Both the position numbers and the translations under genes were made by a program. Below, one piece after another: positions 10,062 through 35,020 of a stretch of DNA of 64,000 nucleotides. The stretch lies in NCBI RefSeq assembly GCF_058153355.1, contig NZ_CM177019.1; one strand, given 5' to 3'. The notes under the pieces were generated by a model. The model ran no database searches, had not been told where the DNA came from, and saw only the letters and a list, made by a program, of their open reading frames with translations. Position 1 is the stretch's first letter. Each line of letters opens with the position of its first letter.

Positions 10062-10820
10062 ATGAGCCTGACCCTCACACTTACTGGCACTGGCGGCGCA
10101 CAGGGCGTTCCCGCATGGGGCTGTGAGTGTGCGGCCTGCGCCAGAGCGCAGCGCTCACCGCAGTATCGCCGCCAGCCATGCAGCGGCGTCGTGAAGTTTA
10201 ACGAGGCGATCACCCTGATCGACGCCGGGCTGCACGATCTCGCCGATCGCTGGTCGCCCGGATCGTTCCAGCAGTTTTTGCTGACGCACTACCATATGGA
10301 TCACGTGCAGGGGCTGTTTCCGCTGCGCTGGGGCGTGGGCGATTCTATCCCGGTCTACGGCCCGCCGGATGAACAGGGCTGCGACGATCTGTTTAGACAT
10401 CCGGGCCTGCTTGATTTCAGCCACACGGTGGAGCCATTTGTGATGTTTGATTTGCAGGGATTACAGGTCACGCCGCTGCCGCTCAACCATTCGAAACTCA
10501 CTTTCGGCTATCTACTGGAAACGGCACATAGCCGGGTGGCGTGGCTGTCTGACACCGCAGGCCTGCCGGAAAAAACGGTGAAATTTTTACGCAATAATCA
10601 GCCGCAGGTGATGGTGATTGATTGCAGCCACCCACCGCGCGCGAATTCGCCACGCAATCACTGTGATTTAAACACCGTGCTGGCGCTGAATGAAGTTATC
10701 CGCTCGCCGCGCGTGGTTCTGACACATATCAGCCATCAGCTTGATGTGTGGCTGATGGAGAACGTACTGCCGTCAGGGTTTGAGGCGGGGTTTGATGGGA
10801 TGGAGATTGGGGTGGAGTAA
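10062..10820 (+). CDS. phnP: Metallo-beta-lactamase-fold phosphodiesterase PhnP
   Basis: 252-aa ORF with HxHxDH metal motif ([10 protein letters not shown]); last gene of the operon. Confidence 0.9.
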
Positions 10821-10854
10821 TGGGTGAGGGGCGATGCCTGCTCTAAACTCAACA

Positions 10855-11184
10855 TCACCGCCCATACTCATCTTCCATTCTCCGCTCTTCATCTTCTAGC
10901 TGCCGACGCTCCTGATCCAGCTGGCGCTGGCGATCGTCCAGCTGCCTGCGGCGATCTTCAAACTGGCGGCGGCGATCGTCATATTGTCTGCGCCGATCGT
11001 CGTTCACTTCACGCTGCCAGCCGTCGTCGCGCGAATCTTCATAGTCTCGCCCACGGTCAGGGTTATAAGCATCGTTAATCGCCTGCTGAATATTGCCAAT
11101 GGTGTCGTCGATAATATCGGCCTGGGCCGGAACGGTGGACAGCGTGAGCAGGGTGAATAAAAGAAATAGCGGAAAACGTTTCAT
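10855..11184 (-). CDS. yjdP: Small secreted low-complexity protein YjdP
   Basis: 109-aa ORF with signal peptide (…TVPAQA/D) and Asp/Arg/Gln-rich repeats (DDRRRQYDDRRRQFEDRRRQLDDRQRQL); position next to phnP as in K-12. Confidence 0.75.
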   Translation of the reverse strand: MKRFPLFLLFTLLTLSTVPAQADIIDDTIGNIQQAINDAYNPDRGRDYEDSRDDGWQREVNDDRRRQYDDRRRQFEDRRRQLDDRQRQLDQERRQLEDEERRMEDEYGR

Positions 11185-11252
11185 TAGCCAACCTCAAAAA
11201 GAAACTCTATCCACATTAGTCATTACTCATCCATGCAAGTAGTGGATGAATC

Positions 11253-11570
11253 TCAATTTTTCCGCTGCTCTATTGCCGTAATCGCCTCCACGCGTTGTTG
11301 ATGACGACCGCCTTCGTACTGCGCGCCCAGCCACGCATCCACAATCATTTTTGCCAGTTCGAGGCCAACCACTCGTGAACCAAAAGCCAGTGCAACTTCA
11401 CTGGCGTAATGCGGATAATCAGTGCGCTCTGACGACCTGGTTTCTTTATCAATCCCCTCACTCATTGACCATGAATAAAAGGCTGGCACAGCAACGCAGA
11501 ATCCTGCGGTGCCAGCGACATGACCGCCCATTGCTCCGGTACGTTTTTTAATAAGAAATACCGGTTGCAT
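11253..11570 (-). pseudogene. rpiB: Truncated ribose-5-phosphate isomerase B (rpiB) remnant
   Basis: 105-aa ORF whose C-terminal ~65 aa (…SSERTDYPHYASEVALAFGSRVVGLELAKMIVDAWLGAQYEGGRHQQRVEAITAIEQ) resembles the RpiB/LacAB C-terminus; the central Gly-rich catalytic segment is missing and the N-terminal 39 aa look unrelated or frameshifted. Full RpiB is about 149 aa. Confidence 0.55.
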
Positions 11571-11822
11571 TGATTAATTGTGCTCAGTATTTGCCGAAGT
11601 ACAATATATATAATAAATATATAAAACACCTCATATTATTTACAGAGATAATAAATTCGCGTACTTTTCCCTCTTCAGCACAAATGCCTAATAAAATGGC
11701 TCGTTCCGCTCACACTTCCACTTATTAAAATCGCAATTTCCCAATTATGATAACGCCAGCTTTAAATGACGTATTTTGCATGGATTACATATTTACGACA
11801 CAAATGATAAATGGAGATTTAT

Positions 11823-13808
11823 ATGAATAACTCTCGGTTATTCCGTTTGAGCAGGATTGTTATTGCGTTAACTGCCGCCAGCGGCATGATGGTAAATACC
11901 GCTCACGCAACAGATGAAGCGAAAGCCGCCACTCAATATACCCAACAGGTTAATCAGAATTACGCCAAATCATTACCGTTTAGCGATCGTCAGGATTTTG
12001 ACGATGCCCAGCGTGGATTTATCGCTCCGCTGCTGGATGAAGGTATTCTGCGTGATGCGAATGGCAAAATTTACTACCGCGCGGATGATTACAAATTTGA
12101 TATTAATGCCGCTGCGCCGGAAACCGTAAACCCCAGCCTGTGGCGTCAGTCGCAGATCAACGGCATTTCTGGCCTGTTCAAAGTCACCGATAAAATGTAT
12201 CAGGTGCGCGGCCAGGATATCTCTAACATTACATTCGTTGAGGGCGAGAAAGGCATTATTGTTATCGACCCACTGGTGACGCCGCCTGCCGCAAAAGCCG
12301 CACTTGACCTTTACTTCCAGCATCGTCCGCAAAAACCGATTGTTGCTGTTATTTACACCCACAGCCACGCCGACCATTATGGCGGTGTGAAAGGCATTAT
12401 CTCTGAAGCGGATGTTAAATCTGGCAAAGTGCAGGTGATCGCTCCGGCAGGCTTTATGGACGAAGCCATCAGCGAAAACGTGCTGGCGGGTAACATCATG
12501 AGCCGCCGTGCACTTTACTCTTACGGCCTGTTACTGCCGCACAACGCGCAAGGTAACGTGGGCAATGGGCTTGGCGTGACGCTGGCAACGGGCGACCCGA
12601 GCATTATTGCGCCAACCAAAACGATTGTCAGAACTGGCGAGAAGATGGTCATCGACGGTCTGGAGTTTGACTTTCTGATGACTCCGGGTAGCGAAGCTCC
12701 AGCCGAAATGCACTTCTATATTCCGGCCCTGAAAGCCCTGTGTACCGCCGAAAACGCCACGCATACCTTGCACAACTTCTACACCCTGCGCGGCGCGAAA
12801 ACCCGCGACACCAGCAAGTGGACAGAGTATCTGAACGAAACGCTGGATATGTGGGGTAACGACGCGGAAGTACTGTTTATGCCGCACACCTGGCCGGTCT
12901 GGGGCAATAAGCATATCAATGATTATATTGGTAAATATCGCGATACTATCAAATACATTCACGACCAGACCCTGCACCTGGCGAACCAGGGTTACACCAT
13001 GAATGAAATCGGCGACATGATTAAGCTGCCACCTGCGCTTGCCAATAACTGGGCCAGCCGCGGCTATTACGGTTCTGTTAGCCACAACGCCCGTGCAGTG
13101 TATAACTTCTATCTCGGCTATTATGACGGCAATCCAGCTAACCTACATCCGTACGGTCAGGTGGAGATGGGCAAACGTTACGTGAAAGCGCTGGGCGGTT
13201 CCGCCCGTGTCATCAACCTGGCGCAAGAAGCGAACAAGCAAGGGGATTACCGCTGGTCAGCAGAGTTGCTGAAACAGGTGATTGCTGCCAATCCGGGTGA
13301 CCAGGTGGCGAAGAATCTGCAAGCGAATAACTTTGAGCAGTTGGGTTATCAGGCCGAGTCCGCCACCTGGCGCGGTTTCTACCTGACCGGCGCAAAAGAG
13401 CTGCGCGAAGGGGTGCATAAGTTCAGCCACGGCACCACCGGTTCTCCGGACACCCTTCGCGGGATGTCGGTCGAAATGCTGTTCGACTTTATGGCCGTTC
13501 GCCTCGATAGCGCGAAAGCCGCAGGTAAGAATATCAGCCTGAACTTCAATATGAGCAACGGCGATAACCTCAACCTGACGCTGAACGATAGCGTGCTTAA
13601 CTACCGTAAAACGCTGCAACCTGAAGCCAACGCCTCTTTCTACATCAGCCGTGAAGATCTGCACGCCGTGCTGACCGGACAAGCCAAAATGGCCGATCTG
13701 GTGAAAACGAAGAAAGCCAAAATTATTGGCAATGGCGCGAAACTGGAAGAAATTATTGCCTGTCTGGATAATTTTGATTTGTGGGTGAATATCGTAACCC
13801 CAAATTAA
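11823..13808 (+). CDS. yjcS: Metallo-beta-lactamase-fold alkyl/aryl-sulfatase-like protein YjcS
   Basis: Track ORF trimmed to MNNSRLF… (661 aa); signal peptide; HSHADHYGG metal-binding motif; AT-rich promoter region upstream. Confidence 0.85.
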
Positions 13809-34843: not shown

Positions 34844-35020
34844 TCTCTACCCTTCCCCGGTCGCTTGATCGGGGAATACTCTTCCTCTCCAATATGCATC
34901 ACCTTTTCTAATAATATTAAACAAATAAACTCAATAAAAAATGAGCGATTTTTGACAGTCGTAGAAAAAGATAATGCAGAGAATATGCCTTTTCTTTCTT
35001 GTTAATTATAAGGATATTTT

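Follow-up and report, generated by a model that had tools for sequence, protein, structure and literature searches.

The small repeat protein YjdP, encoded in the 64-kb stretch of DNA analyzed here (the window), is probably an exported protein, with a repeat that folds into a salt-bridged helical rod bearing a single hydrophobic stripe, and is probably induced by envelope stress. Here, YjdP would be exported through the Sec pathway and cleaved between A22 and D23. The mature protein would consist of an N-terminal amphipathic helix, a flexible acidic linker and a rigid helix of about 55 residues (about 8 nm). Within each heptad, the acidic residues (Asp or Glu) at b and c and the Arg residues at d, e and f would form a dense salt-bridge network along this helix, since acidic and basic residues placed three or four positions apart are able to form salt bridges, as in stable single α-helices (SAHs). 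The hydrophobic stripe (Y, F, L, L, L, M) would be the likely contact surface, either for self-association or for a partner. The promoter is predicted to depend on an activator, with an RcsB-type box abutting a weak -35 element, so that YjdP would be made during envelope stress via the Rcs system, possibly together with sigma-S. YjdP is near-universal in complete Escherichia coli genomes, found only in Enterobacteriaceae and tightly constrained, and it has no known function or structural relative. The handles gained are an RcsB-like box with promoter geometry, a helix anatomy comprising the stripe and a charge gradient, and a set of natural length variants.

NCBIfam, Pfam and RefSeq already list the gene with its repeat as uncharacterised, and the family identity is not new. 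The only new leads are the RcsB-like box and a repeat within the signal peptide. The open reading frame starts with ATG and encodes 109 amino acids (Table 1). The NCBIfam model NF041443, 'DDRRRQL repeat protein YjdP', matches with 147.4 bits versus a cutoff of 90; residues 1-103 cover positions 1-101 of the 101-position profile, above the equivalog cutoff. Relatives of YjdP carry the precomputed Pfam family PF28054, and a Pfam profile scan of YjdP, using a copy of Pfam that lacks the PF28054 model, gave no match. A preliminary description of the window had used the name YjdP and called the function uncharacterised; the name is borne out by the NCBIfam score and the RefSeq annotation, and the family is indeed catalogued as uncharacterised in function. 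A literature search did not find an experiment on the YjdP protein, and one published report describes a modest decrease of yjdP upon over-expression of CsiR. Using megablast, yjdP was found in 5404 of the 5426 complete E. coli genomes, and all matches listed carry the annotation yjdP. The protein of the window differs from YjdP of K-12 in a single residue, S61N. The Shine-Dalgarno sequence is purine-rich (GAGG, GGAG, AGGA or GAGA) in nine of the ten aligned loci, the P0135 locus having only CAGG.

Table 1. Features of yjdP and its upstream region, in positions of the window.
Feature	Position	Strand	Basis or remark
yjdP coding sequence	10855..11184	-	109 codons plus TGA; ORF list, NCBIfam NF041443, RefSeq annotation of near-identical loci, dN/dS 0.03-0.08
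Heptad-repeat region, residues 61-109	10858..11004	-	Seven units [N/Y/F/L/M]-[D/E]-[D/Q]-[R/E]-[R/Q/E]-R-[Q/R]
21-bp tandem DNA repeat under heptads 2-5	10921..11001	-	Tandem Repeats Finder: 3.9 copies, 77% matches, score 83
Acidic variable linker, residues 41-60	11005..11064	-	Length and sequence differ among homologues
Amphipathic N-terminal helix of the mature protein (predicted), residues 23-40 (DIIDDTIGNIQQAINDAY)	11065..11118	-	Cross-genus conservation; helix model
Signal peptide (predicted), residues 1-22 (MKR / hydrophobic core / PAQA)	11119..11184	-	Sequence reading; predicted signal peptidase I cleavage after A22
Shine-Dalgarno sequence GAGG	11192..11195	-	7 nt 5' of the ATG; read from the sequence
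-10-like hexamer TAATGT	11213..11218	-	TAnnnT invariant, C or T before it in 9 of 10 loci
Upstream box TGAGATTCATCCAC, candidate RcsB box	11242..11255	-	Ungapped conserved block in 10 loci with non-aligning flanks
rpiB remnant ORF, 105 aa (context only)	11253..11570	-	Pfam and NCBIfam match the C-terminal part only

The N-terminus, MKRFPLFLLFTLLTLSTVPAQA followed by D (DIIDD), carries a basic n-region ahead of a hydrophobic core, and the cleavage motif is A-x-A. Across 27 homologues A22 is invariant and D23 nearly so, which fits the predicted cleavage site. Residues 23-40 are the best conserved block outside the heptad core. The heptad region reads NDDRRRQ, YDDRRRQ, FEDRRRQ, LDDRQRQ, LDQERRQ, LEDEERR and MEDEYGR. 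Its self-identity at an offset of seven residues is 26, compared to 7.6 ± 2.3 in shuffled sequences (n = 5000; z = 8.0), a value reached by none of the shuffles, and the offset of 14 gives z = 5.1. The seven-residue period is thus not explained by composition. A separate repeat search on yjdP returned one chance 15-nt pair only. The mature protein has 87 residues and about 11 kDa, of which 55% of the residues are charged (20 R, 19 D, 9 E) and none is Lys, resulting in a net charge of -8, a pI of 4.6 and a GRAVY of -2.3. Thus, the predicted signal peptide, the Asp/Arg/Gln repeat unit and the high charge noted in the preliminary description all hold, and the tandem nucleotide repeat matching such a protein repeat is present with a 21-bp period.

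Only 51 matches were obtained among 1.84 billion representative proteins, the named ones belonging to Escherichia, Shigella, Citrobacter, Klebsiella, Buttiauxella, Cronobacter and Entomohabitans. yjdP is a stand-alone gene confined to the Enterobacteriaceae. Its architecture is common to all homologues, down to 41% identity, in the order of an Ala-ending signal peptide, a conserved helix, a variable acidic linker and heptads in the same register. In Escherichia, Citrobacter and Klebsiella the N-terminal helix reads DIIDDxIGNIQQAINDAY; it has diverged further in the remaining genera. Heptad register and hydrophobic position are kept in 27 sequences from seven genera, and the register persists in Citrobacter, Klebsiella, Buttiauxella, Cronobacter and Entomohabitans. 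Here, L89 and L96 are invariant in the 27 homologues and Y68 is invariant or nearly so. The possibility that the repeat units are unconserved in homologues, raised in the preliminary description, can be set aside. In comparison to Citrobacter, dN/dS is 0.07-0.08 overall and 0.07 in residues 23-60. The repeat is the most constrained part, with about 0.03 at saturated synonymous sites, and the signal peptide shows 0.31-0.54; relaxed constraint is typical of signal peptides. yjdP is under strong purifying selection.

Structurally, AlphaFold2 with a 27-sequence alignment modeled residues 53-108 as one helix with a pLDDT of 91-97 over residues 61-100, bearing in mind that AlphaFold2 is prone to high confidence on any charged helix. 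The N-terminal helix (residues 23-40) was predicted with low confidence (pLDDT 57-67), regular structure was absent from the linker residues 46-52 (pLDDT about 53), and the pTM of the whole protein was 0.37. Asp is a poorer helix former than Glu, the usual residue of single α-helices. The distribution of charges within residues 53-108 is strongly ordered: pairs of opposite charge outnumber pairs of the same charge 17:2 at i+3 and 19:2 at i+4, and at i+7 pairs of the same charge outnumber those of opposite charge 23:3.

A second layer of order is hydrophobic. One conserved hydrophobic residue is present per heptad (Y68, F75, L82, L89, L96 and M103), which results in a single stripe along the helix. 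The second core position of a coiled coil is occupied by Arg, Gln or Glu in every heptad and is hydrophobic in none. By definition, SAHs are rich in Glu, Lys and Arg and lack a hydrophobic seam (PMC5347031). Since the stripe is present and the second core position is polar, the YjdP repeat, as judged from its sequence, fits neither the SAH nor the coiled-coil class cleanly. Beside the stripe, Arg/Arg in the N-terminal heptads changes into Glu/Glu in the C-terminal ones; in the 27 sequences positions d and e together carry a charge of +1.3 to +1.8 in the N-terminal heptads, which turns to -1.0 to -1.5 in the two final heptads. The gradient suggests either antiparallel pairing or a polar docking surface.

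The strongest competitor to the isolated rod, although a somewhat doubtful one, is a coiled coil, in which YjdP self-associates via the Leu stripe. Two copies could, for instance, pair in antiparallel orientation, so that Arg-flanked N-terminal heptads of one face Glu-flanked C-terminal heptads of the other. The strict period of seven, the invariant hydrophobic position and the reversal of the flanking charges along the helix, which is kept in distant homologues, are in line with this. Furthermore, designed AEEEXXX heptads (X = K or R) form single α-helices or, if Arg-rich, self-associate, AEEERRR heptads aggregating in vitro (PMC5347031). On the other side, a hydrophobic residue fills just one core position per heptad, with Arg or Glu at the second, and an AlphaFold2 model of a tandem-linked dimer brought no gain in confidence (pTM 0.46, pLDDT of the helix at most 91 and of the N-terminal helix 35). 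Searches of the PDB with the single sequence and with a profile found no relative: the best profile match had an E value of 0.037, i.e., coiled-coil noise, and the weak profile matches, with E values of 0.04 or worse, all belong to coiled-coil proteins (M protein and tropomyosin, for example), which speaks for the coiled coil. Foldseek gave no match for the YjdP monomer model, and a fold search with the linked-dimer model returned nothing useful.

It is unlikely that mature YjdP is instead a disordered polyampholyte, acting as a periplasmic buffer or binder of ions (e.g., Mg2+ or Ca2+) or as a hydrophilin-like protectant. The composition described above, with 19 Asp among its many charges and a strongly negative GRAVY, would fit this, as would the low confidence of the linker in the model and the co-induction of yjdP with osmotic and desiccation genes. 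However, conservation extends to the precise order of residues and to the register, at the lowest dN/dS of the protein, which is not expected if the function rested on composition alone. The repeat is also predicted to be helical with a pLDDT above 90, and its acidic and basic residues are placed to pair, leaving no clusters of free carboxylates. The intrinsic disorder proposed in the preliminary description therefore applies at best to the linker, residues of about 41-52, which looks disordered, and not to the repeat, which is the most constrained part of the protein and is modeled with high confidence. A disordered ion binder is not supported by the predicted helix, the conserved register and the paired charges. 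Nucleic-acid binding, the other function suggested there, is unlikely for a protein that is probably exported and has a net charge of -8.

The helical rod outlined at the beginning includes a prediction on when YjdP is made. The upstream box TGAGATTCATCCAC begins with the three-base stop codon of the rpiB remnant and belongs to an ungapped block common to ten loci, TTG(A/G)GA-N-T-NN-TC(C/T)-N-(C/G)-T. In the window, in O157 and in Citrobacter, the upstream ORF ends at a TGA within this box. The hexamer TAnnnT follows at a fixed distance of 23 nt after the box in all ten loci, which represent at least six genera. The neighbor upstream of yjdP varies (rpiB, a hybrid histidine kinase, a transporter or a nitroreductase), yet both the box and TAnnnT are kept. 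From this arrangement, yjdP appears to be transcribed from its own promoter. A strict sigma-70 scan found no promoter upstream of yjdP. The terminator scan did flag places within yjdP, but on the other strand and as a by-product of the repeat.

The consensus of the RcsB box is TN(G/A)GAN4TC(T/C)NA (PMC7913699), and the yjdP box agrees with it at seven of the eight specified positions in each of the ten loci. The last base of the consensus is missed in all loci, being C or G and not A. In a single genome such a match is weak, as 25 sites with at most one mismatch were found in the 64-kb window versus 52 expected from shuffling. Sites of the RcsB homodimer are usually located just 5' of the -35 element (PMC5651002). 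With 23 nt between its end and the -10-like hexamer, the box would abut a predicted 6-nt -35 element with a 17-nt spacer, and transcription would be expected to start near 11206, about 22 nt 5' of the ATG. A CpxR site (GTAAA-N5-GTAAA), judged by eye across the ten upstream regions, is unconserved and was rejected as a candidate.

In the single informative transcriptome found, inhibition of LolCDE raised yjdP 9.5-fold and 10.6-fold; osmB, bdm, wca, rcsA, ivy and yjbEFG were co-induced (PMC5105897). The RcsB-like box, which is described here for the first time, fits this published induction. The inhibitor of LolCDE also induces the Cpx and sigma-S regulons (PMC5105897), and therefore the induction of yjdP does not single out Rcs. 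Taking box, geometry and induction together, the odds that RcsB controls yjdP directly are roughly even.

A role of YjdP in phosphonate or phosphate metabolism, which its position at the end of the phn operon could imply, is highly improbable. yjdP adjoins phnP or phn/yjdM remnants in Escherichia, Citrobacter, Buttiauxella, Cronobacter, Entomohabitans and two further loci, and expression under phosphate limitation had been proposed on account of this neighborhood. However, yjdP and phnP are convergent in the window, K-12, O157, Citrobacter, Buttiauxella and two further loci, and thus are not co-transcribed. E. fergusonii has kept yjdP with no phn genes within 4 kb downstream, and Cronobacter and Entomohabitans have kept it with only phnH or yjdM nearby. 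Within or near 11185-11400, a search for a Pho box with up to three mismatches, using a consensus from general knowledge, found none, and the upstream element is not Pho-like. Convergence, persistence without phn and the missing Pho box therefore make the phn neighborhood positional and not functional, and the proposed link to phosphate limitation is not supported. The sole Pho-box-like match in the 64-kb window is CTGTCAAAAATCGCTCAT at 34941-34958 on the minus strand, with three mismatches and a shuffle expectation of 0.09.

Like the YjdP family locus of K-12, the locus of the window lies between rpiB and phnP; it differs from K-12 in the truncation of rpiB and in the missing REP-type element between yjdP and phnP. 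The stop codons of the convergent phnP and yjdP are separated by 34 bp (10821-10854). In K-12 this gap is longer by about 112 bp, an extra stretch that is a REP-type element and has been characterized as a G-quadruplex/hairpin motif (PMC5100583). Neither phnP nor yjdP is left with an obvious terminator in the window.

On the other side of yjdP, the preliminary description had noted an adjoining rpiB remnant, and this is correct: in BLASTP the remnant matches only residues 29-53 and 107-149 of K-12 RpiB. It has undergone a 5' truncation and an in-frame internal loss of 53 codons (RpiB residues 54-106). The junction of this deletion is located near 11386-11405 on the minus strand, and the deleted segment is flanked in K-12 rpiB by two copies of CTGGCT, which suggests a microhomology-mediated deletion. 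The junction also creates a hairpin followed by a T-run, which was picked up by the terminator scan. About 1564-1575 of the 5426 complete E. coli genomes share this arrangement of the remnant. The last ~140 nt of the remnant and the 68-nt spacer are nearly identical to K-12, and this 3' end together with the spacer holds the putative yjdP promoter. More generally, the slot 5' of yjdP is a hot spot of replacement (locus L012, 146-2416; L006, 2667-4931; L008, 3085-4917). In O157:H7, Citrobacter and Entomohabitans a hybrid sensor kinase is found upstream of yjdP, replacing rpiB and als; the kinase slot of O157:H7 is the island OI167 (PMC10128022).

All length variants of yjdP seen are in frame (95, 102, 112, 118, 123 and 130 aa), and relative to the 109-aa protein the 95-, 102- and 123-aa forms have fewer or more heptads, always in whole units. 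The 102-aa allele is rare, occurring in about 16-18 of the 5404 complete E. coli genomes with yjdP, and thus the number of heptads is nearly fixed. Copy-number variation across strains, which the preliminary description had considered, does exist and is modest and rare. Given the strong coding constraint, with a reading frame kept throughout these variants, a signal peptide, a Shine-Dalgarno sequence, 3-9 stop codons in each of the other five frames and no Rfam match in 10600-11900, it is extremely unlikely that the ORF is untranslated and the repeat a DNA- or RNA-level feature, for which the low complexity of the sequence and an overlapping antisense ORF might speak. This antisense ORF (84 aa, 10824-11078, plus strand) is rich in Gly, Ala, Asp and Arg, overlaps the repeat and contains stops in Citrobacter; it is most likely a by-product of GC-rich repeated codons.

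A separate and more striking polymorphism is located in the hydrophobic core of the signal peptide, where a perfect 9-bp repeat, TTCACGCTG, encodes Phe-Thr-Leu (FTL). It is present in 9.6 copies in E. coli GCU-H1 (L019, 128-213), giving a protein of 130 aa, in about 5 copies in ST131 (L011, 449-805; 118 aa) and in about 3 copies in EC04 (L010, 301-639; 112 aa). The window (~11133-11156, minus strand) and K-12 carry an imperfect FTL repeat of about 2.5 copies. A hydrophobic core of at least 30 residues might alter the targeting or the cleavage of YjdP.

A more far-reaching version of the preferred explanation would make YjdP a periplasmic spring or spacer rod that is directly activated by RcsB and docks by its Leu stripe, with in-frame repeats adjusting both rod length and export; taken as a whole, this combination is improbable. 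Here, the stripe, with flanking charges that turn from positive to negative, would bind either another YjdP in antiparallel orientation or an envelope partner that the conserved N-terminal helix holds. The 21-bp heptad units would tune the length of the rod and the 9-bp FTL units its export. If the link to Rcs is true, YjdP joins the poorly understood small exported proteins that are made upon damage to the outer membrane or to lipoprotein traffic.

Among known systems, yjdP resembles osmB, bdm, ivy, ymgD and yjbEFGH, envelope-stress genes that are activated by RcsB and encode small exported proteins, in its induction by the LolCDE inhibitor and in its RcsB-like box. It differs from them in that the box is off-consensus at its last position and control by RcsB is putative.

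Compared to the SAHs, both of the ER/K type and of the designed AEEEXXX type, YjdP shares a seven-residue unit of acidic followed by basic residues, dense opposite charges at i+3 and i+4 and, according to the model, a long isolated helix. In contrast to SAHs, Asp (19) outnumbers Glu (9), Arg (20) occurs without Lys, and a conserved hydrophobic residue is found in each heptad of YjdP, whereas an SAH is seamless by definition. Furthermore, an SAH is a spacer joining two domains, whereas YjdP is predicted to be a whole small exported protein. With canonical coiled coils YjdP has the heptad periodicity in common (z = 8.0), but positions a and d are not both hydrophobic.

Braun's lipoprotein Lpp, an example of the heptad coiled coils of the cell envelope, is a small, exported protein with heptad periodicity, in which, as would be the case in YjdP, the length of the helix is set by the number of heptads. 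In this comparison, which is drawn from general knowledge, YjdP differs from Lpp since it has neither a lipobox Cys nor a C-terminal attachment Lys, shows no sequence similarity and contains only one hydrophobic core position per heptad. It resembles Lpp in being small, heptad-periodic and, as its N-terminus predicts, exported.
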